DNA of 38,424 bases. Source: a virus (lineage: Duplodnaviria; Caudoviricetes). The notes beneath the pieces were generated by a model. The model saw only the letters and a list, made by a program, of their open reading frames with translations, was not told the origin of the DNA and did no database searches. The position numbers and the translations under genes were made by a program. Location: the IMG/VR virus record IMGVR_UViG_3300007363_000011, positions 1-38,424 of that record, one strand, 5' to 3'. Of the stretch, positions 209-38,424 are shown in pieces; positions within the stretch are counted from its first letter, which is position 1, and every line of letters begins with the position of its first letter.

Positions 209-236
209 AGTTCGTTGCTGCGAAAGGAATCTAACC

Positions 237-926: not shown

Positions 927-969
927 GCGATGACTGGAATCCGCAATCATCAAGAGTAAGGAGACTGAC

Positions 970-1341: not shown

Positions 1342-1371
1342 CGCTTGCTTGGTCAAGTAAGGAGACTAACG

Positions 1372-1620: not shown

Positions 1621-1622
1621 CG

Positions 1623-1700
1623 ATGGGAATATTTGTCCTAGGTTTTATCATCGGGTTCGCAGCGCGTGAGTTGCTGCGACAGTATCACGAAGAGTTTTAG
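1623..1700 (+). CDS. 25-aa putative membrane peptide
   Basis: MGIFVLGFIIGFAARELLRQYHEEF fills the gap between neighbouring genes. Confidence 0.5.
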   Translation: MGIFVLGFIIGFAARELLRQYHEEF

Positions 1701-1712
1701 GGAGGGCGCATC

Positions 1713-2000
1713 GTGAAGATTTACGATTACATTCAAGACCCCGGCCACGGGTGGCTCAAGGTTCCGGTGTCGGAAGTTATGAAGCACAGGTTCGAACGTC
1801 CCGGTGCGGATGAGAAGTGGCCGTATCAGGGGCGGCGCGTGTCGTGGTTCTCACCTATTAAGGGCGCTTACATTTATCTGGAGGAGGATTGCGATATGGG
1901 TGCGTTCCTCGCCGCGCTGGAGGAGGACGGATTCGACAAGCCTACTATCAATGAAGTGATTGTTTCCGACACCGACAAGCGTAACCCGCGTAATTTCTAG
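1713..2000 (+). CDS. Conserved hypothetical phage protein (DPGHGWL...YLEEDCD)
   Basis: RBS GGGAGG; recurrent phage motif pair. Confidence 0.8.
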   Translation: MKIYDYIQDPGHGWLKVPVSEVMKHRFERPGADEKWPYQGRRVSWFSPIKGAYIYLEEDCDMGAFLAALEEDGFDKPTINEVIVSDTDKRNPRNF

Positions 2001-2010
2001 GGGAGTAACT

Positions 2011-2277
2011 ATGTCTGATGAATACAACGGCTGGACTAATCGCGAGACGTGGACGGCGGCGCTCTGGATCAACAACGATCAGGGTATGCAAGAGATCGCT
2101 ATTGACCTTGCCAAGAGTGACAAATACGGGTACGCAATCCGCGATATGTTCGAGGATATCTCTAACGATGTGGCAGACGGTATCGCTACACGAGAAACAA
2201 TCATGATGATTGTGGAGATCGGAAGCATGTGGCGCGTCAACTGGCGGGAGATTAGAGACTCACTTATTGAGGAGTAA
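2011..2277 (+). CDS. Conserved hypothetical phage protein (YNGWTNxETW family)
   Basis: RBS GGGGAG; N-terminal YNGWTNRETW. Confidence 0.8.
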   Translation: MSDEYNGWTNRETWTAALWINNDQGMQEIAIDLAKSDKYGYAIRDMFEDISNDVADGIATRETIMMIVEIGSMWRVNWREIRDSLIEE

Positions 2278-2324
2278 CAACATATTGATTGGTGTAGGAT
2301 TGTTGAGTAGTGGAGAGAGATCCA

Positions 2325-2891
2325 ATGCCGACGTTCTCACGCGGAAACTCTAAGACCGGCAACGTGATCACGTACTCGCGCACTCCCGGCGACACTTGTC
2401 CCGGTGCATCCGATTTGTGCGCCAGTATCTGCTATGCCAAGCGCCCATATCGGCGTTACTCGCAGACCCGCGCGCAATGGGACGCAAACGCAAGCGTCAC
2501 GGATATCCCGACCCTGCCGCTAGGCCCCGCTACGATCCGGCTTCACGTATCCGGCGATTTCGATACTGCCGAATACATCCTAGCATGGTATTTCGCACTG
2601 CGTGCGCGTCCTGACGTGGTGGCGTGGACGTACACGCGATCGTGGCGCGTCCCGGAACTCCTGCCCTATTTGGAGAAGTTGCGCGGACTGCCGAACGTAC
2701 AGATGTTCGCGTCCACCGATCAGGCCATCACCGAAACTCACCCGGATGGTTGGCGCGTGGCATTCATCGACGGTGACGATCGCTACAGCGGGATCACTTG
2801 CCCGGAACAGACCGGAGTCAAGGCATCGTGCGAGGAGTGCGGGATTTGCTTCATCGGCAAGCGCGGCAATGTCCGATTCCTGAAACACTAA
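2325..2891 (+). CDS. Gp88-like Cys-rich (putative Fe-S) protein
   Basis: GNSK, TCPGASxxCxxxCYA, RLHVSGDF, YTRSW, CPEQ...CxxCxxC. Confidence 0.75.
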   Translation: MPTFSRGNSKTGNVITYSRTPGDTCPGASDLCASICYAKRPYRRYSQTRAQWDANASVTDIPTLPLGPATIRLHVSGDFDTAEYILAWYFALRARPDVVAWTYTRSWRVPELLPYLEKLRGLPNVQMFASTDQAITETHPDGWRVAFIDGDDRYSGITCPEQTGVKASCEECGICFIGKRGNVRFLKH

Positions 2892-2967
2892 GCCGCCTTA
2901 GCATTTAGCGGTATCATTAACAGTAGTTCAATATTTGTATCAGGTTCTTACGGAAGGGATTGGAATC

Positions 2968-3936
2968 ATGCCTGCTAACATTGAGAAGATGGCTTATGTG
3001 TCGAGCGAGGGCGGTACGTGGCACGGTCTAGGCGAGGCGCTTGACCGCTACCCTACCAGCACCGAGATGCTGAAGGCGTCCGGGCTGGATTGGGGGGTGG
3101 AGCGCAGCCCCATGCTGGATGACACGCTGCGCCTGTTCCCCGGTCGCTACATCCTGCGCCGGGATTCGGATGGCGCACCGCTGGGGACGGTCGGTGACGG
3201 GTATCAGGCGGATGCACCGCGTGACCTGTTCGCGTTCGGTGACGGTGTAGTGCAGGACGGTCAGGCTACGTGGTCTACAGCGGGGTCTATCCTGCGCGGT
3301 GGACTGCCCAACGTGTGGGCATCGATGCGAATCGAAGATGACTGGCGCATCGCTGACGAGGAATACAAGCCGTACCTGTTTATTGCTACAGACTATGACG
3401 GCAAGTTGTCTTTTACTGCGAAGCCGACGGCTATCCGGGTGGTGTGCGCCAACACGTTCGCACTTGCGGAGAAGGCTAGCGGAGGGGTGACTATTAGGCA
3501 TAACGCTAAGAATCGGGACGCGCAGTTTGCTGAGGCCCGTCGCCTACTGTCTATCACGACGGAAGAGATGCGCCGGTTCAAGACGTGGGCTGAGGAGCAG
3601 CAGCAGCGGGTTGCTACCAGCGACCTGACTACTAAGGTGGAGGAGATTATTGCACCGAAGCCGGTGAGCGATGATGTCGAGGTGCGCCGCAAGGCTGAGA
3701 CGATGCGAGACAACGTGCTCACCCGGTTCAACAATGACTTCCTTGCACCGGAGATTGATCGTAACGGGCGCACGCGGTACTCACTGTGGAACGCAGTGAC
3801 TGGGTACGCCGACCACGGGGCGCGTCTCCGCAAGACTGAGGGCAACACTGAGAGTCAGGCTCGCCTGATGTCTACGATGTTCGGGACTGGCGCTAACCTG
3901 AAGAGCAAGGCGTATGCCCTGCTCGCCACGTACTAG
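2968..3936 (+). CDS. DUF932 / TIGR03299-like phage-plasmid protein
   Basis: WHGLG, GLDWxV, TAGS, RVVCANT, IRH and WNAVTGYADH motifs. Confidence 0.85.
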   Translation: MPANIEKMAYVSSEGGTWHGLGEALDRYPTSTEMLKASGLDWGVERSPMLDDTLRLFPGRYILRRDSDGAPLGTVGDGYQADAPRDLFAFGDGVVQDGQATWSTAGSILRGGLPNVWASMRIEDDWRIADEEYKPYLFIATDYDGKLSFTAKPTAIRVVCANTFALAEKASGGVTIRHNAKNRDAQFAEARRLLSITTEEMRRFKTWAEEQQQRVATSDLTTKVEEIIAPKPVSDDVEVRRKAETMRDNVLTRFNNDFLAPEIDRNGRTRYSLWNAVTGYADHGARLRKTEGNTESQARLMSTMFGTGANLKSKAYALLATY

Positions 3937-3946
3937 GGAGTAAGAA

Positions 3947-4213
3947 ATGAAGAAGATTGTGAACGTTGCAGAGGTCGATGGCGAGGGGTTGGTCGCTATG
4001 CTTGGCGAGCCAATCACGTTGTTCTGCGTCAACTACATCTACAGCGGTCGCCTGACTGGTGTAAACGATACGTGCGTGCTGCTAGAGGACGCGCACATCG
4101 TTTATGAGACTGGCCCATTCGACGCCGCAATGTGGAAGGACTCGCAGCGACTCCCCGGCGGCACGTGGTACGTGCAAATCTCTGCGATTGAGTCATTCGG
4201 CGGGGGCAAGTAA
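3947..4213 (+). CDS. Small beta-barrel protein, possibly Sm/LSm-like
   Basis: LGEPITLF...YSGRLTGVNDTCVLLEDA...YVQISAIESF resembles Sm1/Sm2 spacing; RBS GGGAG. Confidence 0.6.
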   Translation: MKKIVNVAEVDGEGLVAMLGEPITLFCVNYIYSGRLTGVNDTCVLLEDAHIVYETGPFDAAMWKDSQRLPGGTWYVQISAIESFGGGK

Positions 4214-4422
4214 TGCAAACCGTTTTGAAGCAGCGGTCGCGGTCGTGGTCGTGGTCGGGGTCGCGGTCGGGGTCGCGGTCGGGGTCGCGGTCGTGGTCGG
4301 GGTCGCGGTCGCGGTCGCGGTCGTGGTCGGGGTCGCGGTCGGGGTCGTGGTCGTGGTCGGGGTCGCGGTCGCGGTCGCGGTCGTGGTCGGGGTCGCGGTC
4401 GGGAGTCTATCAAAATTGCTAA
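4213..4422 (+). CDS. Ser-(Arg/Trp/Gly) dipeptide-repeat peptide
   Basis: TAATG stop/start overlap with the upstream gene selects this frame. Confidence 0.65.
   Translation: MQTVLKQRSRSWSWSGSRSGSRSGSRSWSGSRSRSRSWSGSRSGSWSWSGSRSRSRSWSGSRSGVYQNC
4234..4404 (+). repeat. ~28 hexamers TCG-BGG (B = C, T or G) with a 60-bp higher-order period
   Basis: Directly visible; rows starting 4261, 4321 and 4381 are near-identical. Confidence 0.95.
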
Positions 4423-4437
4423 TGAGGGGAACAAGTA

Positions 4438-4779
4438 ATGAATGAAACAAATAGCGAGTACGAATTCCCACCGTCTACGCTTGCCCATATTCGAGAGAAG
4501 ATGGAAGAAGGCGCAATGCTATCCACTCAAGTAGAGATGCTAGAGGAGTTCAATGATCTTCTCGATGACCTTTCACGGGAGGGGCGGTGCGGTTGTGCTC
4601 AATCTGAGTTCCTTTCCGCTGTGTCAGCACGCTATGCCAACGCTTTACGTGGGTGCTACACTCAATTCCCCGGCCAGTCTGTCAATGAATTGCAGGAGTT
4701 TGCTAGACAGTACGCTGATTTCATGATTGAGGTATGCGATATGTATGAGTCAGTGGTTGGGGTGCATAGCGATGAGTAG
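4438..4779 (+). CDS. Hypothetical protein
   Basis: RBS GAGGGG; acidic, helical-looking ORF. Confidence 0.7.
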   Translation: MNETNSEYEFPPSTLAHIREKMEEGAMLSTQVEMLEEFNDLLDDLSREGRCGCAQSEFLSAVSARYANALRGCYTQFPGQSVNELQEFARQYADFMIEVCDMYESVVGVHSDE

Positions 4780-4978
4780 TTCTTTCGAGCACCAGAAGTT
4801 AGACGGTCTGCTCGCTGCTAAGATGGCAGACTACCTTATTGCCATGACGCCGGGAGTAGATAACAAAGAGCGCAACGGATTGATTACTCACCTGTATTCT
4901 TTCCTGCGTAACGAAGCAGACTGCCCGGTGTGGGCGCACGATTTCGGCTGGCCGCCGATTGAACACGAAGAGGATTAA
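4772..4978 (+). CDS. Hypothetical protein
   Basis: ATG overlaps the end of the previous gene. Confidence 0.65.
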   Translation: MSSSFEHQKLDGLLAAKMADYLIAMTPGVDNKERNGLITHLYSFLRNEADCPVWAHDFGWPPIEHEED

Positions 4979-5056
4979 CGTGAATCAGACTCAAATGAGA
5001 ATCAACAATAAACTTTACTTCACTGACGATTGGCGTAAGGTTAAGTGTCTTTACTA

Positions 5057-5290
5057 ATGGAAACAGTTGAATACAAGACGCTCATGAAGCGCGGTCGCAA
5101 GCCAGTGATTACTACGAAGTTGCTTGGCATTAAGCCGGGCGAGGTAGTTGAGTGGCACAACAATTCACAGCGGACTATCTACCTGCTGGCGCGTCGTAAT
5201 AACCTAAAGGGAAAGTTTGCTACACGTATTATCGACGGCAAGATGTATGTGTCACGCAAGGTAGAACCCGATGCGCCCGAGTTGGGATGA
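5057..5290 (+). CDS. Small basic protein, possibly DNA-binding
   Basis: KRGRKP motif; preceded by promoter-like TTTACT-N16-TAAGGT (5014-5041). Confidence 0.6.
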   Translation: METVEYKTLMKRGRKPVITTKLLGIKPGEVVEWHNNSQRTIYLLARRNNLKGKFATRIIDGKMYVSRKVEPDAPELG

Positions 5291-5636
5291 TTACTTCAAT
5301 GTGATTGCCATTGATGTGTCCTCTAGGGCTACGTGCCCTAGGGCGCATGTCGGTGCAGTCATTGTGTCTGATGACAATCGCATCCTAGCAACGGGGTACA
5401 ACGGTTCACCACCGGGAGAACCCCATTGCATTGATGAGGGTTGTGTCATGGAGGATGGTCATTGTCAGAGGGCACTACACGCCGAGGTGAATGCGGTAGC
5501 GCATGCTGCTAGGGCTGGTATTCCAGTAGGCGGATCGAGGTTGTACCTCTATGGCAGCAACGGATACCGTGAACCGTGCAGAGAATGTTTTAAGGTATTG
5601 AAAGCGGCAGCGGTTCGGTTCGTGCTGTCCGAGTAA
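5271..5636 (+). CDS. dCMP (deoxycytidylate) deaminase
   Basis: RPSWDDYF, RATCPR, VGAVI, TGYNG, HAEVNA, PCxxC. Confidence 0.92.
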   Translation: MRPSWDDYFNVIAIDVSSRATCPRAHVGAVIVSDDNRILATGYNGSPPGEPHCIDEGCVMEDGHCQRALHAEVNAVAHAARAGIPVGGSRLYLYGSNGYREPCRECFKVLKAAAVRFVLSE

Positions 5637-5682
5637 CCTATCTGGTTACGCCCGAAGTGTAGCATACCCGTCAACCTTTCGG

Positions 5683-5711
5683 TTGTAATTTATTGTGTTA
5701 GCCTCTAAGAT
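5683..5711 (+). promoter_or_regulatory. sigma70-type promoter
   Basis: TTGTAA-N17-TAAGAT in an AT-rich gap. Confidence 0.65.
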
Positions 5712-5717
5712 TTAACA

Positions 5718-5948
5718 ATCCAAGTCACCCCATTCAGGGGAGAACGGTGAGATAATCTACTCAGCCCGCCCCTGACATCTGGGGAGACGCCAGAGGGTGG
5801 GCAACAATGGCGGCGTCGGCGTGGCGAGATGACACGCACGTACACTCATTAGTTCTTAGTTCACCCTACTGTGTAGGGGACGAGGGGCTGGCGGTGGACG
5901 GACTGGGGAGTAGTCAGGGCAGGACTGACACGCCACCTCCAAAGAACG
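5718..5948 (+). ncRNA. Candidate structured RNA or long leader
   Basis: Several nested stems immediately downstream of the promoter (see findings). Confidence 0.4.
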
Positions 5949-5956
5949 GATACCTT

Positions 5957-6379
5957 TTGAAGTACCTATTCATTGCACCGCTGCTCATGTACGGTGCCCT
6001 GTGGGCGCAACGCCCCGAACCCCCGACCATCAAGATCACCAAGGCACCCGTGGAATATATTGTTACAGATTTTACTCCGGGTGTGGAGGTGCAGGATGGT
6101 TGGGCTAGGTCACTTACTTATGAACAGTGGCGTGCAGTGTTGGTATTCCCGGAGGAGTACCAGTACGCAATGGCTCGCATCGGGTGGTGCGAATCTAGGT
6201 TTGACCCTACTTCAATCGGTTACTATGGCGAGCGTGGCGCATGGCAAGTGCGTCCTGAATTCTGGGGAGAAGTGCCACCCGACCTATTAGGTCAGGCTCG
6301 TCAGGCATCTCTGATTGTCCAGCAGTGGGGAACTGAACCGTGGTCTACTAAGAATGGTTGTGATGGTTGGGGCAGATGA
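5957..6379 (+). CDS. Lysozyme-like / SLT transglycosylase with N-terminal hydrophobic anchor
   Basis: Probable TTG start giving MKYLFIAPLLMYGALWA; CESRFDP...GAWQ...PW signature. Confidence 0.7.
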   Translation: MKYLFIAPLLMYGALWAQRPEPPTIKITKAPVEYIVTDFTPGVEVQDGWARSLTYEQWRAVLVFPEEYQYAMARIGWCESRFDPTSIGYYGERGAWQVRPEFWGEVPPDLLGQARQASLIVQQWGTEPWSTKNGCDGWGR

Positions 6380-6622
6380 ATGAGCAGTTGGACACACTGT
6401 GACAACTGCGGCAACGCTGCCAAGGATGATGAACTTGACGGCTGGTACGCAGTGTTCTGCCCCGAGCATAGAAGCCAAGAACTGTTAGAACTGTCGGCAT
6501 TCTTTAATGCACAAATAGTAGGAAGGCGTAAACAGGAACCACTTGAATTCTGTTCCGCCAACTGTGTCCAATCATACTTCTTTTGGAAAGATAAACTGAA
6601 TGTCGGCAGTCCTGATTCTTAG
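6380..6622 (+). CDS. Hypothetical Zn-finger protein
   Basis: CDNC...FCSANC. Confidence 0.65.
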   Translation: MSSWTHCDNCGNAAKDDELDGWYAVFCPEHRSQELLELSAFFNAQIVGRRKQEPLEFCSANCVQSYFFWKDKLNVGSPDS

Positions 6623-6812
6623 TAAGTCGCCACGGTTTCACACTGCGCTGCACTGTGATTCTATCTACAATCCTAATATGGTGAACAAGATTGATAGCGT
6701 AATTGTTACCACTCTTGAAAAGGCAAAGGCCAGTGGCAAGAGACGGTGCAAGAACTCCGAGTGTATCGCCACCCCCTACTACTGGTGGAAGGAAGGGGAA
6801 GACCTGCTATGA
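6600..6812 (+). CDS. Hypothetical protein
   Basis: FH...HC...RRCKNSEC; ATGA overlap with the next gene. Confidence 0.6.
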   Translation: MSAVLILSKSPRFHTALHCDSIYNPNMVNKIDSVIVTTLEKAKASGKRRCKNSECIATPYYWWKEGEDLL

Positions 6813-7681
6813 ATATAACTAATAAGTTATACCTACCAGAACCGCTATACATGGCGGTGGCTACCGCACCGTACTCGCGTGGCGAGTCTGACATCTCCGC
6901 TACCGCGCTCATTGATTCGCCCCGCAAGGTTGCACTGGAAGAAAAGTACAGTCACCTATTGGGTGAAGACATCTCTAAGATGGGCGCAATGATTGGCGGC
7001 AACGCCTTTCACGCCTACGTTAAGGGCACCGGAGAACTTGACGACGCGCTGCGCCTAACCATGAAGGTCAATGGTTGGGTGGTATCGGGTCAGACTGACC
7101 ACGTTACCGGCGAACACATCATCGACTACAAGACGTGCCGGGTAGCGAAGTACATGCGCGGGCTGAACAAGGGGCACGAGGATTGGGAGGCGCAACTTAA
7201 TATCTATGCCGAACTGCTACGCTCTAATGGATATGAAGTAAACAAACTTAGTATCTGTGCGTGGCTCAAAGACTGGTCTATTGAGAACGCCGGGTACGAC
7301 AACGGCTACCCTGAGTCAGACATCGTGATGATTGACATCCCGCTGTGGCCTGTATCTAAGGCTCAGGATTACATCATCGAGCGCGTCCTGCTACATCAGG
7401 CTGCGCGCAAGTCACTGCCGCTGTGTTCCCCCGATGAACTATGGGGCGAGGATACGTGGGCGGTGATGCGCCCCAATGCCAAGCGTGCGTCAAAGGTCGA
7501 GAAGACTGAGCAGGATGCACAGGGATGGATTGACAGTAAGCGGGAAGCGGGAGACGCTACCGAATACTGGATCGAATACCGTCAAGGTGAACCCAGACGC
7601 TGTAGATTCTACTGCAACGTCGGTAAGGCTGGACTCTGCGACCAGTATGAGCAGGCCAAGTTGAACGAAGGAGTTGCGTAA
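6809..7681 (+). CDS. PD-(D/E)XK (Cas4/RecB-like) nuclease
   Basis: MNITNK..LP, SATAL, GxxFH, SGQTD, IDYKT, QLNIY, RCxxYC. Confidence 0.85.
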   Translation: MNITNKLYLPEPLYMAVATAPYSRGESDISATALIDSPRKVALEEKYSHLLGEDISKMGAMIGGNAFHAYVKGTGELDDALRLTMKVNGWVVSGQTDHVTGEHIIDYKTCRVAKYMRGLNKGHEDWEAQLNIYAELLRSNGYEVNKLSICAWLKDWSIENAGYDNGYPESDIVMIDIPLWPVSKAQDYIIERVLLHQAARKSLPLCSPDELWGEDTWAVMRPNAKRASKVEKTEQDAQGWIDSKREAGDATEYWIEYRQGEPRRCRFYCNVGKAGLCDQYEQAKLNEGVA

Positions 7682-8070
7682 TGTCAAACTTTACTCACCG
7701 GATTGCATGGGATACACCCTACTGCTACACCGAAGTAACCTACGATACCGATGAAGTCATGACCGATGAGATCATGCAGAGCCTTGCCAATCACGCTGTG
7801 TCTATGGAGGCAGCGATGCTGGAGGTTGGTGGCGGCCCGCGTCAGTACTCTCCTGCTGGTCAAGAGGCGATGGCTAACGGTGCTGTGCCAGTGGCGGGGA
7901 ACCTGCCTAGCAACAACGTAAGTGGCAAGACTTGTAAGAACTGCGGTGGCCCCACTAAGGCTGGTGATTGGCGCAATGGTCAGTACGGTGTATCCCGTCC
8001 GTTGGAGTGCCTGAGCGGGTGTCTCAACGAGAAGGGCTACCCTCTGGCTACGTGGGAAAAGAAGAAGTAA
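7681..8070 (+). CDS. Hypothetical protein with C-terminal Zn ribbon
   Basis: TAATG coupling; CKNCGG...CLSGC. Confidence 0.7.
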   Translation: MSNFTHRIAWDTPYCYTEVTYDTDEVMTDEIMQSLANHAVSMEAAMLEVGGGPRQYSPAGQEAMANGAVPVAGNLPSNNVSGKTCKNCGGPTKAGDWRNGQYGVSRPLECLSGCLNEKGYPLATWEKKK

Positions 8071-9468
8071 TTGCCGCGTAGGGACAGGCTGCCGCCGCAT
8101 TCAGTAGATGCTGAAGAGGCAGTGCTTGGCGCGATTCTTGTCGAGCCTAGCGTCCTAGACAAGTGCACCATAGCCGGGTTGCTTGCGGAAGATTTCTTTC
8201 GCGAGCATCACGGCTGGGTGTACTCGGCAGCGTTAGCGTGTAGGGATGCCGGGCTAGACCCCGGCATCATTACTGTTGCGGCTGAACTAAACAAGCGTGG
8301 AAAGTTAGACGAGTCAGGCGGGGAACCGCTACTCGCAAACTTGGTAGCCAAGTGTCTTACCCCTATCGGGGTAGAGACGCACATCAAGATGGTCGGGGAT
8401 ACGGCTCGACTGAGGCGTACTCTGGTAGCGGCTGGGCAGATTGCCCAACTGGCTTACAGTGAGGAAGACCCTAGTTCAGTACTTGAAAAGGCCCAGTCAC
8501 TTATTGGTGGGCTGGTTCGGGTCAAGGACAGCGGGCTAGAGAAACTTACTGGCGCTCACGTAGAGCAGGCGGAAGGCCCAGAGTGGGGCATCCCTGCTAT
8601 TGATGGTGTGACAATGGGGATGGCACCGGGACGCATGACTATCATCGCTGCACCTACTGGTCAGGGTAAGTCTATGTTGTCCGGTCAGATTGTCAGGCAG
8701 TTTGCTGGTACTGGTGGGCGGGCGGCTATCTTCACGATGGAGATGTCTAACCAAGAGTACCTTTCTCGCATGGCCCATGCTATCTCGGGGGTGCGGATGC
8801 GTTCTTCCAAGAGCGACCCTGCATTTACTGAGTTTGAGCAGGAGCAACTGAATGATGCACGTTCGGTTATTGACAAGTGGGATTTGTATTCGTCTGACAA
8901 GTCTTCCGTCAGTGCCAACGGTATTGCCGCTTCAGTTAGGGCGCTTTCGAGCGAGCGCCCGGTCGGGCTGGTGCTGATTGACTATCTGCAACTGATGGCC
9001 CGTGGCGGTGATAGCCACACCAACGACGCAGAGGCGCTGAAGGCCATTACAGGGGCTATGAAGGGCCTTGCAATGGAGGTCGGCTGCCACGTAGTGATGG
9101 TTAGCCAGATGAACCGGGCTTCCCTGAGCGAGATGCGCCGCAAGGAATCAAATCTGGCGGAGTGCATCATTACCGAAGAGAAGTTTCCGATTCCATTTGC
9201 CGAGTCTCTAATGGGTGGGGCGGTGGAGAATGATGCTGACTTACTTGTCATGCTTCAGAAGCACCCCGGAGAACACTGTTATAATCATGTCGAGGTATGC
9301 GTGGTGAAGAACCGGAACGGTATCACCGGGCATTCGATGATGATTAGCAACTATGCACTTGCTAGACTAGAGACAATGGATTTGTATGCCGTTGGGCGTG
9401 TGGCATCGGGTGACTTGTACAAGCATCGCGCCCTGCTGAAAGACCAAGGGTTGTATATCGGTGACTAA
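8071..9468 (+). CDS. dnaB: Replicative DNA helicase DnaB
   Basis: PPHSVDAEEAVLG N-domain, Walker A APTGQGKS, MEMS, IDYLQL, SQMNR, ENDAD, KNRNG. Confidence 0.93.
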   Translation: MPRRDRLPPHSVDAEEAVLGAILVEPSVLDKCTIAGLLAEDFFREHHGWVYSAALACRDAGLDPGIITVAAELNKRGKLDESGGEPLLANLVAKCLTPIGVETHIKMVGDTARLRRTLVAAGQIAQLAYSEEDPSSVLEKAQSLIGGLVRVKDSGLEKLTGAHVEQAEGPEWGIPAIDGVTMGMAPGRMTIIAAPTGQGKSMLSGQIVRQFAGTGGRAAIFTMEMSNQEYLSRMAHAISGVRMRSSKSDPAFTEFEQEQLNDARSVIDKWDLYSSDKSSVSANGIAASVRALSSERPVGLVLIDYLQLMARGGDSHTNDAEALKAITGAMKGLAMEVGCHVVMVSQMNRASLSEMRRKESNLAECIITEEKFPIPFAESLMGGAVENDADLLVMLQKHPGEHCYNHVEVCVVKNRNGITGHSMMISNYALARLETMDLYAVGRVASGDLYKHRALLKDQGLYIGD

Positions 9469-9655
9469 TCAATACCAGATTCACAAGGTAAACGAACAGT
9501 TCTCCGTAACTCTGGTTCGAGAACTAGAGGAAGAACAGATGCAGGGCTACGAAGAGGTGGCACGCTTCGACTCTCTGAAAGAGGCGACTAACTACGCAGG
9601 AGAACGTGGCGCAGTCATCATTGATTTTGATGCACTGTTGACAACTAACGCATAA
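9461..9655 (+). CDS. Hypothetical protein
   Basis: Overlap-coupled to neighbours. Confidence 0.6.
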   Translation: MTNQYQIHKVNEQFSVTLVRELEEEQMQGYEEVARFDSLKEATNYAGERGAVIIDFDALLTTNA

Positions 9656-9903
9656 TGGATTGTGTGCATCACTGGGTTATTGAATCTCCCGGTGAGGCGA
9701 GGGAGCGTTGGAATGAGCAGTCTCTCGAAGGCGAAGGCCAGACTTACCAGTCTCGATGCAAAAAATGCGGCGCTGAAAAGGATCACATCTCAGACCGCAA
9801 GTTTGACTACCTTGCAGAAGAAGTCAACAAGTCTAATTTCTTCCCAGAGGACATGCCGGAAATGCATCGGAGGGCTAGTCGTCGGCGGCTGGGGCGAGAG
9901 TAG
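9655..9903 (+). CDS. Small Zn-ribbon protein (CxHHWxIExP...CKKCG)
   Basis: TAATG coupling; motif. Confidence 0.7.
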   Translation: MDCVHHWVIESPGEARERWNEQSLEGEGQTYQSRCKKCGAEKDHISDRKFDYLAEEVNKSNFFPEDMPEMHRRASRRRLGRE

Positions 9904-10042
9904 TTGCATCAACTGTGGCTGGGCGGAAGAGTACGAACTGAACCGCCGCTACATGGAAGGTGTGATGGCTAGGATGGCAGAGTCTGGGCTGTCTATCCAA
10001 GCAGAACGATTCAACTTCGAGAAGAAACTTTCTCTCGGATGA
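9812..10042 (+). CDS. Small Zn-ribbon protein (start uncertain)
   Basis: CRKCIGG...CINCGW; ATGA overlap downstream. Confidence 0.55.
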   Translation: MQKKSTSLISSQRTCRKCIGGLVVGGWGESSCINCGWAEEYELNRRYMEGVMARMAESGLSIQAERFNFEKKLSLG

Positions 10043-10164
10043 ACTTGCATTGCCCTCGGTGTGAGCAGTGGGTGCATATCTCACAGATGGTCACTGTCGA
10101 GGGTGATGGGTATGACTACATGGTGTGCAAGCCTTGCCTGACGAAAAAGGATAAGCGTGCCTGA
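10039..10164 (+). CDS. 41-aa Zn-finger peptide
   Basis: Not in the track: MNLHCPRCEQ...VCKPCLTKKDKRA; ATGA overlap. Confidence 0.6.
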   Translation: MNLHCPRCEQWVHISQMVTVEGDGYDYMVCKPCLTKKDKRA

Positions 10165-10588
10165 GCCCCGCGTCCCCACCAAGTACACGCTCAAGAAGTA
10201 TGGCATTACCGAAGAGGATTGGCGTGCGATTCTTGACAGGCAGGGTGGTGTATGCGGGGTGTGTGGGCTAGTGCCTGAGTCTGGCACGTTGCACATTGAG
10301 CATGAGCATGTCAGAGGTTGGAAGAAGATGCCCCCTGAAGACCGGAAGCGGTTTGTCAGGGGGCTTTGTTGTTTCACCTGTAACACCCGGTGGGTAGGGC
10401 GGGGCGCTACGCCCCAGAAACTACGCGCTGCCGCTAAGTACCTAGAGGAATACGATAGGCGCAAGTATGAAACGATCACCGATGCGCCGAACCAAGGGGC
10501 TGAACAAACAGTCAGCAAAAGGAAAGCAAAACCATCAGGACTGGATAAAACGCAGGGACGAAAAGTTAAGGGTACATCCATCCTGTGA
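10157..10588 (+). CDS. Recombination endonuclease VII-like nuclease
   Basis: KYGIT..W..IL.RQGGVCGVC, LHIEHEH, VRGLCCxxCN. Confidence 0.85.
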   Translation: MPEPRVPTKYTLKKYGITEEDWRAILDRQGGVCGVCGLVPESGTLHIEHEHVRGWKKMPPEDRKRFVRGLCCFTCNTRWVGRGATPQKLRAAAKYLEEYDRRKYETITDAPNQGAEQTVSKRKAKPSGLDKTQGRKVKGTSIL

Positions 10589-10775
10589 GGGTAAGGGCGT
10601 CATTGAAGGTGACTGTTGGGGGTGGATGACAGTACACCACAAGATGCCACGTAGCATGGGTGGTACGCAGCATGACGACTCGCCGCTAGTAACGCTCTGC
10701 GTTAAGCACCATGACTGGATTGAGGGGAATAGGGAATGGGCGAAAGAGCATGGGTGGCTTCTAAGGAAAACGTAA
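10467..10775 (+). CDS. HNH endonuclease
   Basis: MKRSPMRR, CEG...C, VHHKMPRSMGG, LVTLCxxHH. Confidence 0.8.
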   Translation: MKRSPMRRTKGLNKQSAKGKQNHQDWIKRRDEKLRVHPSCEGKGVIEGDCWGWMTVHHKMPRSMGGTQHDDSPLVTLCVKHHDWIEGNREWAKEHGWLLRKT

Positions 10776-10927
10776 TGTGGGGCTGGTGTGACTACTGTGA
10801 TCCATTCGGAGAGTTCACGCCAGCGTACCTGTCAAAGAACATGCCTACTGTAAGGTATTATGATACCTACAAGTTATGCCTTAGTTGCAAGTGTGTTACT
10901 ATTATCGAGGACAGGGGAGATGGTTAA
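10775..10927 (+). CDS. Small Zn-binding protein
   Basis: TAATG coupling; CDYC...CLSC. Confidence 0.55.
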   Translation: MWGWCDYCDPFGEFTPAYLSKNMPTVRYYDTYKLCLSCKCVTIIEDRGDG

Positions 10928-10961
10928 CTCAGCACTCCAATGTAAAGAACGAGGTGAAGTC

Positions 10962-11405
10962 ATGAATACACCTGAACGCGCCCCCACGCCGGAGCCGGTG
11001 ACACCTGACCTAGAGGAAGCGCGCAAAGTGCTGATGCGGTCGCACGACTGCTTTGAATGGATCGCGCGATGTCAGGACGAGTTATCGGCCTTCGAGGCTG
11101 CTGCCATCGCAAAGGGCCGCGCAGAGGAGCGTGGGCGTATTCAGACACAGGAGTGCCCCGAAGAAGAGCCGGTGTATGCCAGAGACATCATCCAGCGCAT
11201 GACCGAGGCGCTGATCTGGTGCGGCGGCTCTCCCTCGTTCGGCCCGGATGGCGAGGCTCGCGAGGGGTGGCTGAAACTCTGTCGCCCGCTGATTGACGAG
11301 GCGCTGCGCTTGCCGCACGACCCGGCCCCTCCTACCGAATCCGAAGCACGCCAGAAGATGATCTACGCCCCTGCGGAAGTCCCTGCAAGGGATGGTGAAG
11401 CGTGA
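10962..11405 (+). CDS. Hypothetical protein
   Basis: RBS GAGGTG before ATG 10962; GTGA overlap with the next gene. Confidence 0.65.
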   Translation: MNTPERAPTPEPVTPDLEEARKVLMRSHDCFEWIARCQDELSAFEAAAIAKGRAEERGRIQTQECPEEEPVYARDIIQRMTEALIWCGGSPSFGPDGEAREGWLKLCRPLIDEALRLPHDPAPPTESEARQKMIYAPAEVPARDGEA

Positions 11406-11587
11406 GCGATCAGCGCCCGCTCCTCCTGCTGCCCGAGGTGGCCGAGGAACTGCGCGTGAGCGTCGGGACGCTGCGCAACTGGATTCGTGACGGCAGGGTG
11501 CGCGCGATTCGGCTACCGGGCGGCACGCTGCGTATAACCCGCGCCGAGTTCGATCGCGTGGCTGCATCTGATGGGAAGGTGGAGTAG
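11402..11587 (+). CDS. Excisionase-family (HTH_17) DNA-binding protein
   Basis: LLLPEVAEELRVSVGTLRNWIRDGRVRAIRLPGGTLRI. Confidence 0.88.
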   Translation: MSDQRPLLLLPEVAEELRVSVGTLRNWIRDGRVRAIRLPGGTLRITRAEFDRVAASDGKVE

Positions 11588-12343
11588 ATGGTTAATGTAA
11601 ATCCGTGTAAGGTAATTCCAAACACCAGCATTGTTTCTGGCATGCCTACAGTAAGTGGTGGGCCGTTCCCGCAAAGCGTAGTAATGAACGTCACCAGCCC
11701 GTATGGGCCGCGCGACCCTATCTATACCCCAAACGGGACTACTTCAAACTTTCATTTTGGTGTAGACTTTTGGACACCGGGGCAACAGCCACCGCTAGTA
11801 GCAATGACCGACGGTGTAGTCCGACTCTCTGTTGCTGGTGATAGCATTGTTGGCAACTGGATTCGTGTTGAGAACGATGAATACTCATGGGAGTATTATC
11901 ACCTCGACCAGCCGCCGCCACTTAAGATTGGCGATGATGTAGTAGCCGGTCAGGTAGTAGGTCAGGTGGGCGCAACTGGCATGGCTACCGGCCCTCATCT
12001 CCACCTCGGCATCCAGCAGAACGGGTCAACGGTAGACCCCATGCCGTTCCTTGTAGGCGGCGGGCCATCCGTATCAATCACCCCTGAGTTCCGTCCATCA
12101 CCGCCGCTGTTCTCTGAACAGGGAACATCCCTTGTGACGTTTACTGGCGGCACGTCAACAGACATTGAGAACCTTGCACGTCAGGCTGGCGCAACTGGTG
12201 CATGGGTACAGGACAAGACTGGCAAGTTCCAACTCTTGATTGTTGACGGGCCGGACTTCATGCGTCAACTATTTGATTCAGCGTTTCCCACGCCGTTTGG
12301 CGTGTGTGCAATTAGCCTTACGAAAGCATTGGGAGGAATGTAA
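11588..12343 (+). CDS. M23 metallopeptidase, putative endolysin, with C-terminal binding domain
   Basis: TSPYGPR, HFGVD (HxxxD), YYHL, GATGMATGPHLH, VDPMPFL. Confidence 0.88.
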   Translation: MVNVNPCKVIPNTSIVSGMPTVSGGPFPQSVVMNVTSPYGPRDPIYTPNGTTSNFHFGVDFWTPGQQPPLVAMTDGVVRLSVAGDSIVGNWIRVENDEYSWEYYHLDQPPPLKIGDDVVAGQVVGQVGATGMATGPHLHLGIQQNGSTVDPMPFLVGGGPSVSITPEFRPSPPLFSEQGTSLVTFTGGTSTDIENLARQAGATGAWVQDKTGKFQLLIVDGPDFMRQLFDSAFPTPFGVCAISLTKALGGM

Positions 12344-12537
12344 TGATTAAGTATCTTTGGAACAAACTGCCATACGAAGAGCAGAAGTTAATCTCTGGTG
12401 CTATTGTCGCACTTCTTGCGGCAGGGGCGGTACGCACCATGGAAGGAAGCATCGTGGTTGACACGGTAGTAGCAACTACGGTGCTGGTACGGTACGCAAC
12501 CGACAGCATCCAGCGTGCGCTTGAGCCCAATGAGTAA
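12343..12537 (+). CDS. Putative holin
   Basis: Hydrophobic 64 aa, TAATG-coupled to the M23 gene. Confidence 0.5.
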   Translation: MIKYLWNKLPYEEQKLISGAIVALLAAGAVRTMEGSIVVDTVVATTVLVRYATDSIQRALEPNE

Positions 12538-12880
12538 CTACATGAGTACCGAGGGGGAAGACCTCGGCAACTGTGGCGATCCGTCATGCGATTTATGCCG
12601 CAACAGTAAGACGATTCTAGAGCGGGCTGCTGATGCCGTGTTCAATGACCGGCAGGAAAACTACGGGCATCCGTCTCGTAACTTTGCACGCATTGCCAGT
12701 CTTTGGAATGCGTATCTAAGTCAGTATGGCACAACAAAAATTGCCTCTGAAGATGTTGCTATCATGATGATTCTCATGAAGGTAGCGCGTCTGATTGAAA
12801 CCCCAGACCACGAAGATTCTATCGTGGATATTGCTGGCTATGCCGAGGCATACGCCCGCATGCTGGGCATCGACAAGTAA
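12530..12880 (+). CDS. DUF6378-family all-alpha protein
   Basis: DRQENYGHP..NFARIASLW, DVAIMMILMKVAR, HEDSIVDIAGYA. Confidence 0.85.
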   Translation: MSNYMSTEGEDLGNCGDPSCDLCRNSKTILERAADAVFNDRQENYGHPSRNFARIASLWNAYLSQYGTTKIASEDVAIMMILMKVARLIETPDHEDSIVDIAGYAEAYARMLGIDK

Positions 12881-12904
12881 ACCCTGTGGCGGGGTGAGGT
12901 AACG

Positions 12905-13768
12905 ATGAAACACTTAATCGTAGATGTACCGACTAACGAGGTACATCTGTACCCCATCTCTGACGTTCAAGTGGGCGCAGCGGGTGTGGCTACGGAGCAG
13001 TTCGTAGCCCACATTGCTGAAGCAAAGAAAGACCCACTGGCAATGTTCTTTGGAGGGGGCGATTACACTGACTCGCTCTCACCGTCCAACAGGAAACATC
13101 TCAAGGCTGCGTTCTTACGTGGTGATTTGTACGACACGCCAGAAAGTATGCTTGAAGAGAAGGGCAAGGAACACGCCCGCGAGTTCCTTGAACTGGTAGA
13201 GGGTACTGAAGGGCAGTGGAATTTCTTGCTGAAGGGGCACCACCTTAATGAGTACAAGGTGCAGAACTCTGACGGTACTCATACTATCCGCACCACTGAC
13301 CATGACATTGCCGAGGCTTTAGGTGCCCCATATCTAGGGGAACCCGGTGAGAAGATTGGTCAGGCGCTTATCTCTTACCGCTTCCCTGCACACGTAGCGG
13401 GGCGCAAGCGCCCTGTGATGCGTATGTTCGCCATGCATGGGCAGGGTGGGGGCGGTACGTGGGGTGCGCCACTCAACCAACTGGAGAAGATGAGCAAGGG
13501 CTTTAACGCCCACGTCTACTACGTAGCCCATCACCACAAACTGCTGTCCGGTGCTACGGTAAAACTCCATGAAGGCCCCGAGGCTACCACGAGGCTGAAG
13601 GCTACGGACTCACGGGTTGTGGCTGGCGGATCATGGCTGCGCGGGTACATCCCCGATGAGATTACCTACGCTGAGGATGGCGTTATGCCCCCTCTCGCCA
13701 TCGGTGCCCCGGTTATCTACGTAACATCCATGAAGGATGGGACGTTTAGGATTAAGGTACTGACGTGA
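12905..13768 (+). CDS. Calcineurin-like metallophosphoesterase
   Basis: SDVQVG, GGDYTD, KGHH, MHG and AHHH in canonical order. Confidence 0.78.
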   Translation: MKHLIVDVPTNEVHLYPISDVQVGAAGVATEQFVAHIAEAKKDPLAMFFGGGDYTDSLSPSNRKHLKAAFLRGDLYDTPESMLEEKGKEHAREFLELVEGTEGQWNFLLKGHHLNEYKVQNSDGTHTIRTTDHDIAEALGAPYLGEPGEKIGQALISYRFPAHVAGRKRPVMRMFAMHGQGGGGTWGAPLNQLEKMSKGFNAHVYYVAHHHKLLSGATVKLHEGPEATTRLKATDSRVVAGGSWLRGYIPDEITYAEDGVMPPLAIGAPVIYVTSMKDGTFRIKVLT

Positions 13769-14076
13769 TGCACGTTGCCCGCGCCGCATCTAGGCTGAGT
13801 CCAATCAAGCCGAAGATGGGTGCTGCTATCGTCAAGGGCGGACGTGTGCTTGGCGTAGGGTACAACCGCCCCGGTTCAACCCAGTGGAATCACTGGTCAA
13901 GACACGCAGAAACTACCGCCATCATTGCAGCGGGGGATTGCAGGGGCGCTACGCTGTACGTGTACCGCGAGCATGGCATGACCGGCGAGCCGATGATGGC
14001 GAAGCCATGCTCAGGATGTGAAGAAGCCATCTCTCTCGCTGGTATCAGGCGGGTAATCTACACTAAGCCTGAATAA
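13765..14076 (+). CDS. Cytidine/dCMP deaminase-superfamily protein (second deaminase)
   Basis: MGAAIV, GYN, HAE, KPCSGC, GIRRVIY. Confidence 0.88.
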   Translation: MMHVARAASRLSPIKPKMGAAIVKGGRVLGVGYNRPGSTQWNHWSRHAETTAIIAAGDCRGATLYVYREHGMTGEPMMAKPCSGCEEAISLAGIRRVIYTKPE

Positions 14077-36107: not shown

Positions 36108-36551
36108 TTAATCATTATTACCCGACTTAAGCATGAGGTTAATTCTCTGCGCTTCTTGGATAAGTTCTGTTTCGTCTACCCCGTAGGTGTTAGCAATAAG
36201 CGAGATCGCCCGCACGTCCACTTCCCGCTTGTCACTAAACTCACGATGACGCTTGGCAAGGAGGGTAAGGGCTGAGACACGGGCTGCATGCGGTGCCGTT
36301 GGGTCGGTCGCGATCGCCCACCCCTCTCGAACGATGTCTTCAGCCGTTACCTCTGCCCGCTGGAATACTCGGTCACGGACTTTATCTAGTTCCCGGCTAA
36401 TCCGTGGGTCTTTCATCAGCCGAGCAGCGGTTACGTCGGCGCTTCCTGCTGCATACCCGGCCCGGATAGCCGCCTGAGTCCCATTGTTATCAATAAGGTA
36501 CTCTTGAACAAAGCGGGCTTGCTTCATTGTTAACTTAGGTCGTGCTGCCAT
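36108..36551 (-). CDS. terS: Terminase small subunit
   Basis: LTMKQARFVQEYLIDNNGTQAAIRAGY. Confidence 0.92.
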   Translation of the reverse strand: MAARPKLTMKQARFVQEYLIDNNGTQAAIRAGYAAGSADVTAARLMKDPRISRELDKVRDRVFQRAEVTAEDIVREGWAIATDPTAPHAARVSALTLLAKRHREFSDKREVDVRAISLIANTYGVDETELIQEAQRINLMLKSGNND

Positions 36552-36557
36552 GGTGAT

Positions 36558-36585
36558 AGTGTATACACAAATTATCATTTGTCAA
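36558..36585 (-). promoter_or_regulatory. Late promoter giving a probably leaderless terS mRNA
   Basis: TTGACA-N16-TACACT-N6-ATG; no SD sequence. Confidence 0.65.
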
Positions 36586-37098
36586 TAACATGTGAAAATA
36601 ACCTAGCATAAAGTGCCTAGTCTAGAAAAATATCCTGTATTTTTTCAGGAGTCTAATTACCTAGATTACTGACTCCTGTATTTTTACGGGGCGCTATGGC
36701 GTCTAAAGCGGGCTAAAAACACGTGGGCGGCACGGCCCTAAGGGGCCTCACGAGCCCGCTTACTCGGGCGTGGTACTTAGTGCCACTGCGCCACGGAAGC
36801 GCGCTGTAGACGCTTCCTGCGGGCTTTAGGCGCGGTTCTGATTCCCTTATTGCAGTGGCAGAAAAGGTGGGGGCTGGATTTTTTGTTGCAATTTGTAGCG
36901 GGGATGTCCCCCCGCGCGGCGCCGCCGTCGCGGTCGCCCGTCTCGCCGCGGCATGCCATGACGCGCGTGTCATGTATCGCTTGTCGTGACAGACAGAACA
37001 GCGTAACCGCCTAAGCAAATTAGCAGAATCAGCCGGGAGCGAGGGGTACCGGTACGGGGTCGGGGTATGACGTCACCTGCGACCGGGCCAGCGTGCCA

Positions 37099-37126
37099 GA
37101 ACATCCGTTCTCCAGAACATCTGTTC
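37099..37126. promoter_or_regulatory. Two tandem LexA (SOS/Cheo) boxes
   Basis: GAAC-ATCC-GTTC at 37099; GAAC-ATCT-GTTC at 37115. Confidence 0.8.
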
Positions 37127-37372
37127 AGCACGTCTGTCCTATCCGTCCACTTGCATATACGTCTTATCAATTCCTAGGTGGGCGCATCGCGGATACCCTA
37201 CCTAGGTATGGCATCACCAAGTATCAACAAATTGATAGCACCGCCAGAAACTATCACAACTTTAATAGAAATTGACCCTAGATATCAATTTAATGTTACA
37301 CACGGCGCGGCTGGCCTGCTTAACTGTCTCCAGTGGCAATGAACACCGGACACGAACGGAAGGGACGCACGA

Positions 37373-37498
37373 ATGAACGCGGTGATGGTCAAGTCTGGCG
37401 GTCGGCAACTCCCGTGGCGCTTCGGCAGCGATCAGCACAAGCGCGCGATCCAGCGTGCGGACGCAATCGCGTCTCGCTGGCAGGTGGTCGCCAAGTAG
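37373..37498 (+). CDS. 41-aa basic peptide with LPWRF motif
   Basis: Not in the track: GAAGGGA RBS; MNAVMVKSGGRQLPWRFGSDQHKRAIQRADAIASRWQVVAK. Confidence 0.6.
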   Translation: MNAVMVKSGGRQLPWRFGSDQHKRAIQRADAIASRWQVVAK

Positions 37499-37557
37499 AA
37501 CGCACGTTCGAGTCTGGGGCAGAACGCTTGTTCTGACCCACTCGCGAACGGATGTTC
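37498..37557. promoter_or_regulatory. Three LexA boxes at exact 24-bp spacing
   Basis: GAAC-GCAC-GTTC at 37498, GAAC-GCTT-GTTC at 37522, GAAC-GGAT-GTTC at 37546. Confidence 0.85.
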
Positions 37558-37578
37558 TGTTCGGGATAAGGTATCGTT

Positions 37579-37848
37579 ATGTTCACCGAGGGCGCATTGC
37601 GTCCGTGGGAAGTGCTGATGCGCGATCCCATCGGGCGGCAGCCGAAGGCTCAGAATCTACCGTGGCGATTCTCCGGGCGTGCTAGCACGCTGAAGATCAA
37701 CGGCGTCGAAGTTGCGCGCAAGCCGCGCACGGTGAAGAACACGCGTTCTACTAGCGTCAGGCGAACTACTGCGCCAGTAGAACGGACGTTCGACAACAAC
37801 GCCCGGCTGGAAATTTCCCGCGGAATTCGAGCGAATCTGGCGATCTAG
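37579..37848 (+). CDS. 89-aa basic protein with LPWRF motif, possibly leaderless
   Basis: TAAGGT-N6-ATG; motif shared with the 37373 ORF. Confidence 0.5.
   Translation: MFTEGALRPWEVLMRDPIGRQPKAQNLPWRFSGRASTLKINGVEVARKPRTVKNTRSTSVRRTTAPVERTFDNNARLEISRGIRANLAI
37737..37791. promoter_or_regulatory. Two further LexA boxes
   Basis: GAAC-ACGC-GTTC at 37737; GAAC-GGAC-GTTC at 37780. Confidence 0.75.
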
Positions 37849-37907
37849 GTATTGCACTTAGTATCGCGGCATGATTTGATCCTATTAGTGAAGGGACGGC
37901 ACAAGTA

Positions 37908-38424
37908 ATGCGGGCATACCACTTCCTGCAATACGACATGACCACATCTAGTGGGGACGAACCCGCGTGGACGGTGGGGGAGACACGCACCATTCCCGCT
38001 AACCGCAAGATCATCCCGTGCGAGTACGGCTATCACGCCTCGCCTACGCTGTTCGATGCGTTGACATACGCGCCGGGTTCTATTGCTTGTGTGGTGGAAC
38101 TCGACGGCGACGTAACCCCGCACGGCAACCCGCCGGACAAGTACGCCGCACGTTCGCGGACGCTGATTGCCGCTGTTGACCTGACGGTTGCGTTGCGACT
38201 GTTCGCTGCTGACTGCGCCGAAAAAGTCCTCCCAATCTTCGAGAAGGAGCGACCAAACGACGACCGCCCACGCAAGGCGATCGAGGCAGCGCGCGCCTAC
38301 GCCGGAGGCGAGATCGACGCTGCGGCGGTGGCTGCGGCGTGGGCTGCGGGGAGGGATGCGGCGATGGCTGCGGGGAGGGCTGCGAAGAGGGATGCGGCGA
38401 GGGATGCGGCGAGGGCTGCGGCGA
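37908..38424 (+). CDS. Imm5-like domain protein with Ala-rich repeats, paralog 1 (5' part; continues through the junction to 208; 209 aa in total)
   Basis: Not in the ORF track. ATG at 37908 after GAAGGGA; MRAYHFLQ...CEYGYHAS...YAPG...KYAARSR...RLFAADCAEKVLPIFEKERPNDDRPRKAIEAARAY matches the Imm5-like pattern. Confidence 0.85.
   Translation, partial: MRAYHFLQYDMTTSSGDEPAWTVGETRTIPANRKIIPCEYGYHASPTLFDALTYAPGSIACVVELDGDVTPHGNPPDKYAARSRTLIAAVDLTVALRLFAADCAEKVLPIFEKERPNDDRPRKAIEAARAYAGGEIDAAAVAAAWAAGRDAAMAAGRAAKRDAARDAARAAA
38330..38424 (+). repeat. 95-bp terminal overlap identical to positions 1-95 (circular assembly overlap)
   Basis: Both copies read GGCTGCGGCGTGGGCTGCGGGGAGG...GGCTGCGGCGA. 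Confidence 0.95.

Follow-up and report, generated by a model that had tools for sequence, protein, structure and literature searches.

LexA-type box arrays beside the packaging genes of a tailed phage without lysogeny genes: a possible sink for host LexA

The head of the early arm in the genome of this uncultured tailed phage carries seven perfect boxes of the form GAAC-N4-GTTC. It appears from the sequences compared that such arrays are under selection, variable in make-up, placed off the predicted promoters and located next to the packaging genes in a phage without lysogeny genes. The seven boxes are candidate sites that are very probably bound by the LexA protein of the host. Our leading explanation, which we hold tentatively and with somewhat less than even confidence, is that they form a docking array for host LexA that would act mainly by number, as a sink.

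The boxes and the leader that carries them

The window is the whole stretch of DNA analysed here (38,424 nt; one virus record, G000, with a 95-nt end repeat). Exact boxes were found at 37099, 37115, 37498, 37522, 37546, 37737 and 37780, as in the preliminary description of this DNA, and its other observations were also reproduced: the spacers read R-N-N-Y in 7/7 boxes, the preceding base was A in 6/7, and the boxes at 37498, 37522 and 37546 followed a 24-bp period. An eighth exact box lay alone at 26029, inside a gene of the virion arm. The boxes had been said to exceed chance by far, and the enrichment check agreed: region 36579-37907 contained seven against a mean of 0.021 in 5000 dinucleotide shuffles (shuffle maximum 2), and the whole window contained eight, where shuffles averaged 0.52 and never exceeded 2 (0/100 reached eight). 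GAAC-N4-GTTC was the commonest gapped 4-bp palindrome in that region, and the spacer-3, spacer-5 and reversed controls had no occurrence either there or in the window. The exact 4-nt spacer thus upholds the earlier identification of the motif as a Gram-positive-type LexA operator (SOS or Cheo box), as described in the accessible text of PMC3323433 and PMC4551915; the former states a LexA motif of this type for Firmicutes and Actinobacteria.

Reading rightwards from the terminase genes, the order was a GC-rich stretch with G-runs, array A, a palindrome with an AT-rich stretch, ORF1, array B, ORF2 with array C inside it, and the remaining early arm. The features are as follows.

36108..36585, minus strand: terminase small subunit gene with its own promoter (TTGACA-16-TACACT at 36585-36558); no box nearby
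36870..37070, no strand: GC-rich stretch with G-runs, presumed packaging start or genome-end zone from its position beside the terminase genes and its composition
37099..37126, no strand: array A, boxes 37099 and 37115 (16 bp apart), non-coding, in the gap that separates the terminase genes from the first early gene; siblings have 3-8 boxes in this slot
37194..37300, plus strand: TACCC..GGTA palindrome (37194-37208), common to L017, L020, L024 and L040, and AT-rich stretch (AT 0.65)
37373..37498, plus strand: ORF1, 41 aa, basic, first early gene, aligned with siblings at 39-52% identity
37498..37557, no strand: array B, boxes 37498, 37522 and 37546 spaced at 24 bp, separating ORF1 from ORF2; box 37498 shares bases with the ORF1 stop codon
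37567..37572, plus strand: TAAGGT, likely ribosome-binding site of ORF2, from GGAGGA/AGAGGG in siblings and T37572G in two runs
37579..37848, plus strand: ORF2, 89 aa, basic, conserved; sibling homologues of 117 aa at 34% identity, and P0238, a full-length homologue of 88 aa
37737..37791, no strand: array C, boxes 37737 and 37780, inside ORF2; altered in variant contigs

The preliminary description had overlooked the conserved 41-aa ORF1, whose stop codon overlaps a box, and the fact that two boxes lie inside the conserved gene at 37579-37848. Both ORF1 and ORF2 are taken as real genes because they are conserved in siblings. The ORF1 family comprised nine proteins including that of the window, and was confined to this phage group. 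Neither ORF matched a family in PHROGs or Pfam or a structure in PDB. The predicted fold of a sibling copy of ORF2 was of low confidence (pLDDT 55), too poor for a structure search, and ORF2 and ORF 5045 gave no usable match in the ESM Atlas.

The first early promoter likely lies within 37194..37300, a position taken from the siblings. This stretch also contains, at 37222, one IHF-like word. We infer a genome end at 36870..37070 from position and composition, and the contigs examined had no trace of it. In the small terminase gene the -10 element TACACT stands 6 nt before ATG 36551, and the spacing is alike before the terminase genes of L026 and L043; the transcript is likely leaderless. A DnaA-type origin in the window was considered and rejected, since no DnaA box within one mismatch was found near the array. 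The window contained no parS.

Promoters, relatives and turnover of the boxes

TAAGGT at 37567-37572 had been reported as a -10 element 6 nt ahead of ATG 37579. Its position was correct, but its role was not supported. The consensus promoter scan did not call it, the siblings have GGAGGA or AGAGGG at this position, and T37572G (giving TAAGGG) occurred in contigs of two runs (X4 and X7). It is likely the ribosome-binding site of ORF2. In comparison, the early promoters of the siblings are clear sigma-70 promoters (TG-extended TTGCAA-17/18-CATACT; TTGACA-17-TACACT). Eight array loci with 74 boxes (at most one mismatch) contained 25 sigma-70-like sites, and a box fell in the span of two weak reverse-strand sites; no forward early promoter called by the consensus scan in these loci had a box, and the distance from early promoters to the nearest box was 72-517 nt. 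The remaining early arm of the siblings is headed by a second promoter, strong and without a box, which in 4/5 cassettes stands about 390 nt beyond array B. The early promoter of the window itself was not called by the scan, and it is therefore by homology with the siblings that we consider the boxes of the window to lie off it.

We examined 32 terminase loci, of which 14 formed one sister clade in the tree, at about 60% terminase identity to the window. Three to ten perfect boxes were present in 11 of these 14, located 0.86-1.8 kb upstream of the large terminase and in the same slot as in the window, so that the conservation in related contigs asked after earlier was found. Among the other three, L017 had no box in 10 kb and two were too short. 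Because the 11 box-bearing loci are closely related, they and the window probably represent about two independent lineages. Another 11 more distant loci had no box in the upstream DNA examined, which was mostly shorter than 2 kb; of the long records, G003 had two scattered boxes and G004 none. A box with zero or one mismatch sat on the ORF1 stop codon in all five sibling cassettes (L020, L024, L026, L040 and L042), hence in 6/6 with the window. L023 and L025 lacked the ORF1-ORF2 cassette and array B together and kept only array A; in L023 the array was present and a homologue of ORF2 was not detectable. L017, with a near-identical terminase, had neither boxes nor the cassette.

Other words occurred in the same slot. 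A perfect 16-bp parS word directly adjoined the LexA array in siblings without ParA (approximately L018:130, L020:2232, L024:1114 and L048:8926), and L040 had a copy with one mismatch. Among the LexA boxes there were five further boxes in L025 (2090-2370) and four in L042 (1110-1300), against a simulated mean of 0.01; these words, similar to TTGTGAA-N4-TTCACAA, we take to be of Rex or CRP type. At L017:8800-8920 the slot held repeated TACCC..GGGTA palindromes instead of boxes. GAAC-W-GTT repeats were seen just past the small terminase gene in L017, L025, L026 and L042 and are candidate terminase sites. The word GTTTACA/TGTAAAC, possibly half of a LacI-family operator, recurred in the early region of L020, L023, L024, L026, L040 and L042 (two to four per locus scanned) and was absent from the leader of the window.

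The boxes also differed among close variants. In a contig of run X9 the 37737 box inside ORF2 was present twice, through a duplication of 21 nt that keeps the reading frame, positions 37724-37805 were replaced in a contig of run X4, and a close-variant contig had GAAC changed to GCAC at 37781. The commonest spacing of adjacent boxes in the window and siblings was 13 bp (15 pairs), tighter than the 18-20 bp footprint expected of a Bacillus LexA dimer (from the accessible text of PMC4551915). It appears from these sequences that gain and loss of boxes outpace the conservation of their positions, the ORF1 stop excepted. The 13-bp tandem boxes create GGAAC-N17-GTT, which in our view resembles an ECF-sigma promoter consensus; we rejected this candidate because most spacings differ and the unit is the palindrome.

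The genome, its host and arrays in other phages

The genome of the window is a complete circle, because a second assembly (G001) spans the 95-nt end repeat and continues into window 1-237. A false circle was considered, given that the end repeat sits in a 12-nt tandem repeat, and was rejected on this crossing. The plus-strand early arm encodes DUF932, exonuclease, DnaB, endonuclease VII, deaminases and an M23 peptidase, and the minus strand is the packaging and virion arm. The claim that the phage has no recognisable repressor, integrase or ParA, and no polymerase, stood up to searching. Among 74 ORFs compared with PHROGs and Pfam there was no DNA polymerase, integrase, CI, LexA domain or ParA, and no plasmid replication gene was recognised among them. 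Six-frame profile searches of G000 for LexA domain, tyrosine integrase, HTH_3, S24 peptidase, ParA and resolvase gave no match to PF01726, PF00589, PF01381, PF00717 or PF13614, and a single below-cut-off match to PF00239 (resolvase) within the DUF932 gene. A small excisionase-like HTH_17 protein is encoded at 11402-11587. No structured RNA or tRNA was found in the window. Tyrosine integrase was absent from all 13 records of the family (0/13).

Some further features of the gene content were recorded. Two DUF7666 genes in tandem span window 37908-38424 and 1-926; the first encodes an Imm5-like domain and has an alanine-rich repeat of 12-nt units, the number of which varies among assemblies. Two separate dCMP-deaminase-like genes (5271-5636 and 13765-14076) occur in this one 38-kb genome. 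An ORF of 69 aa with Ser-Arg-Trp repeats (4213-4422) follows a gene for 88 aa (3947-4213) that is conserved in siblings at 77% identity, and a similar pair is found in an unrelated segment of G001.

Over window 4282-38424, G001 (47,417 bp) shows no difference from our genome; it also carries an integrase, located within the approximately 13 kb not common to the window. Its positions 1-13156 are without window 238-4281 and add a second DnaB, and the junction is a low-complexity Ser-Arg-Trp repeat. This part (L015) was seen to be an unrelated temperate phage segment with an integrase, an HTH repressor-like ORF and a DnaB, in a record rated 100% complete. The integrase might have been the missing lysogeny module; we rejected this, taking G001 as an assembly chimera, which it likely is, and relatives keep the gene order of the window across 238-4281.

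The N-terminus of DnaB had 113 matches, 15 of them taxon-named; 14/15 were Chloroflexota, including four Dehalococcoidia. Judged by this one gene, the host is likely a member of the Chloroflexota. LexA of Dehalococcoides binds a box of the GAAC-N4-GTTC type. The portal had 91 matches, and the sole taxon-named one was an Acidobacteria MAG at 43%. A GTDB search for a prophage or host link returned one weak terminase match. The closest cultured relative by terminase was at about 28% identity, and queries with the array sequence for cultured relatives returned chance matches or none. Rufus and Zooman contained no GAAC-RNNY-GTTC box.

Tandem pairs of the box were found in about 980 viral stretches, compared to 67 for the reversed control, and triple arrays in about 190, the 980 and 190 being estimates from partial scans. 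Among 74 ORFs beside sparse pairs there were five YolD proteins (three loci) and one UmuD/LexA-like protein (one locus) with tandem boxes ahead, and because of these neighbours we conclude that the pattern picks up what look like real SOS operators. At least four boxes in 800 bp were present in 24 of the 123 pair loci seen. We tested 17 of these 24 dense loci, leaving out two siblings, one duplicate and four short loci. Tyrosine integrase was present in 0/17 dense-array records, compared to 22/50 records of at least 31 kb with two or three boxes (Fisher p 0.0006), a contrast that is confounded because only 2/17 dense records were at least 90% complete and some are kin; with the nine dense records longer than 45 kb, p was 0.02. 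In 80 triple loci, a box fell within -45 to about +40 of 5/35 strong promoters, and 36/80 had a G6/C6 run (raw count). Enrichment of arrays at contig ends was rejected, as dense arrays were no nearer to them than pairs (7/23 vs 16/73 within 1 kb).

The box word formed arrays in unrelated phages with a GC of 0.30-0.72, and some triples were plain tandem repeats or iteron-like runs (L306, L335). In the unrelated L085 (2800-3200), LexA, CRP-type and DnaA words were mixed together in front of an early promoter, with the end of the contig 400 nt away. A complete phi29-like genome (G028; L077/L195) had an array in the terminal repeat at both ends. At the right end of another phi29-like phage (L127), the promoter of the capsid operon had perfect -35 and -10 elements with a box in between; this appears to be a classical, GIL01-like late operator in a tailed phage, so operator and off-promoter uses both seem to exist. 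T5 (NC_005859.1; L263) had two near-consensus E. coli LexA boxes (6213 and 9411) beside DnaA boxes in its first-step-transfer DNA (L263:6121-6230 and 9411-9520), one of which falls in the annotated injection stop signal 9140-10149. No description of dense off-promoter LexA arrays in integrase-less phages was found in the literature searched, which was mostly open-access and without supplements that may list such sites.

Possible functions and known systems

If the boxes are a sink, host LexA would bind the seven sites packed at the likely first-entering end of the genome. The LexA pool of a cell is hundreds of dimers (an E. coli figure). Seven sites per infecting genome are too few to titrate such a pool, and the sink could therefore not act at entry but only after replication. 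As the phage DNA multiplies, the sites would draw LexA away from the host chromosome. Several hundred of them would be present once the genome numbers tens to a hundred copies, which may be enough to ease repression. A partial derepression of host SOS genes (recA, a division inhibitor and repair polymerases) would benefit a phage that has a helicase but no DNA polymerase and borrows the host replisome. The three boxes of array B, between ORF1 and ORF2, may also slow transcription into ORF2 until LexA is depleted; this roadblock would not gate the remaining early arm.

A decoy that titrates LexA was one of the two functions suggested at the outset, and it seems to fit the comparative data. Site number appears to matter more than position, as seen from the 3-10 boxes in 11/14 loci, the 13-bp spacing and the in-frame duplication inside ORF2. 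The boxes avoid the predicted promoters in the sister loci (no forward site in eight loci) and mostly in the triple loci (5/35 strong sites). The word is of host type, as the same pattern precedes YolD and UmuD/LexA-like genes and its pairs far outnumber the control, and other host words take the same slot (parS and Rex/CRP-type words, with DnaA and CRP-type words in the unrelated L085). The context is lytic, judging from the integrase counts in the family and the dense records and from the boxes in T5, and the probable host type agrees. However, a number of observations do not follow from a pure sink. Clustering at one end and a fixed box on the ORF1 stop in 6/6 cassettes would be needless, parS is not a titration device, L017 is box-free in spite of its near-identical terminase, the 11 distant loci had no box in the upstream DNA examined, and the L127 box is a classical operator. 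Moreover, the integrase contrast is confounded by completeness and kinship, arrays are not nearer to contig ends than pairs, some triples are tandem or iteron-like repeats, and the host is deduced from one gene while the only named portal match points to Acidobacteria.

Some of these observations would be expected if bound LexA slowed the early steps locally and paced the phage to DNA damage in the host, a lytic deferment similar to that of phi29 with its Spo0A boxes and parS. Such a sensor, which we think rather unlikely to be the main function, might work chiefly as a roadblock ahead of ORF2; other ways would be a loop joining array A to array B around the first promoter, or occupation of an origin. 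It would account for the box on the ORF1 stop in the window and 5/5 sibling cassettes, for the further boxes that abut the ORF2 ribosome-binding site and for the joint loss of cassette and array B in L023 and L025. The sibling parS mirrors phi29 (accessible text of PMC2731898), and the G028 arrays at both ends are like the Spo0A boxes at phi29 origins. However, the box-free strong promoter about 390 nt downstream of array B heads the remaining early arm in siblings, copy number and spacing vary freely, and the window has no parS. The interchange of host words in one slot (LexA, Rex/CRP, ParB, DnaA) could also reflect a structural coat: any host protein that binds tightly to the DNA entering first would cause injection to pause, act as a ratchet or give the DNA cover, much as has been proposed for the injection-stop region of T5. 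The T5 box inside the annotated stop signal and the G-runs that often adjoin arrays (G6/C6 in 36/80 loci, raw count) favour this function. We consider it improbable, because the genome end and entry direction of this phage are deduced, L017 manages without boxes, two boxes lie inside a gene and enrichment at contig ends was not above that of pairs.

The other function suggested at the outset was a master switch: host LexA would repress the early arm, and DNA damage would end a carrier state kept up without a phage repressor, much as in GIL01; ORF1 or ORF2 might then take the part of gp7. The lack of a CI or integrase in the searches, the two small basic ORFs among the boxes and the sibling parS, which would aid persistence of the genome through division, are in line with this. 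The comparative evidence weakened the suggestion to the point where we give it a very small chance: the proposed promoter looks like a ribosome-binding site and TAAGGT is not conserved as a -10 element, no box sits on a forward early promoter and the sibling sigma-70 promoters are box-free, no ParA or recognised plasmid replication gene is present in the window, L017 has no box at all, lytic T5 has LexA boxes as well, and the boxes of GIL01 sit at the promoter (accessible text of PMC4551915 and PMC6182141). It is equally improbable that the palindrome only resembles a LexA box while its true binder is some other host protein or one encoded by the phage, for which ORF1, ORF2, the small terminase and the HTH_17 protein would be the candidates. 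The absence of the ORF1-ORF2 cassette from the boxless L017 would agree with such a binder, and the LexA box of the host is a presumed one. However, L023 keeps its array without a detectable ORF2 homologue, L017 and L026 have the small terminase in common but not the boxes, on which ground we rejected the boxes as small-terminase sites, and this word, which stands ahead of SOS-type genes, recurs in arrays of unrelated phages with very different GC. We therefore rank the LexA sink first, with the local sensor close behind and possibly coexisting with it, and then the entry coat, the master switch and the non-LexA binder.

The known role of LexA sites in phages is that of operators timing prophage induction. 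Dense, fast-changing, off-promoter arrays in integrase-less phages point to another use of the host repressor, by DNA alone. If LexA is titrated, the damage response of the host would be turned on without any phage-encoded protein, and the non-coding terminal DNA would be a host-takeover module missed by annotation. In a wider and more doubtful form, lytic phages of many hosts might carry swappable arrays of regulator sites (LexA, Rex/CRP, DnaA, ParB) in the first-entering DNA as protein-free sponges, which titrate repressors as the genome multiplies and here would switch on SOS for a polymerase-less Chloroflexota phage. The array pattern is also a clue to the host of uncultured phages, and the role of LexA could be tested with T5 in E. 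coli.

In LexA-controlled antirepressor loci of temperate phages, LexA boxes precede a small phage gene. The arrangement here is similar in this respect (such loci are cited in PMC9437464), but genomes with that type of locus also encode CI and integrase, whereas the searches of the window gave neither these nor an antirepressor family. The accessible text of PMC9437464 cites LexA solely in connection with temperate phages and their antirepressor, co-repressor or lytic promoters. The use of host-regulator sites by phages at promoters or origins is already established, as far as the accessible text of PMC4551915, PMC6182141, PMC2731898 and PMC9437464 goes. GIL01, a betatectivirus with the LexA-operated promoters P1 and P3 and the proteins gp7 and gp6 (accessible text of PMC4551915 and PMC6182141), resembles our phage in its Gram-positive-type LexA boxes, in the small early proteins adjoining them and in the absence of a cleavable repressor of its own (no PF00717, PF01726 or PF01381 in G000). 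However, GIL01 is a temperate tectivirus of the linear-plasmid type, and its boxes, about two for each promoter, are located at the promoter itself. In this tailed phage group there are 7-10 boxes away from the predicted promoters, some inside a gene, without sign of a stable prophage state; the consensus scan placed no box at an early promoter (-35 to about +45) in eight loci, and ORF1 and ORF2 have no sequence link to solved structures.

Lytic phages offer closer parallels in some respects. Phi29 has parS and, near the ends of its DNA, sites for a global regulator of its host; the number of sites varies among its relatives. The regulator is Spo0A, and its boxes extend over early promoters and protein-primed origins as well, where repression has been shown (accessible text of PMC2731898). 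Here the promoters are uncovered, parS occurs in siblings only (four loci) and the genome end is deduced. The CtrA-site clusters associated with lytic deferment in alphaproteobacterial phages are likewise convergent clusters of host-regulator sites in unrelated phages, but they were shown to lie in promoter regions and to regulate phage genes (accessible text of PMC9437464). T5, a lytic phage, is similar in that the DNA it injects first, part of which is non-coding, has words for host proteins: DnaA words according to the annotation of NC_005859.1, and LexA words found in the present analysis. In T5, two separate LexA boxes lie 6-9 kb into a 10-kb terminal repeat, whereas the phage described here has a dense array at most about 1 kb from the presumed end of a 38-kb genome.
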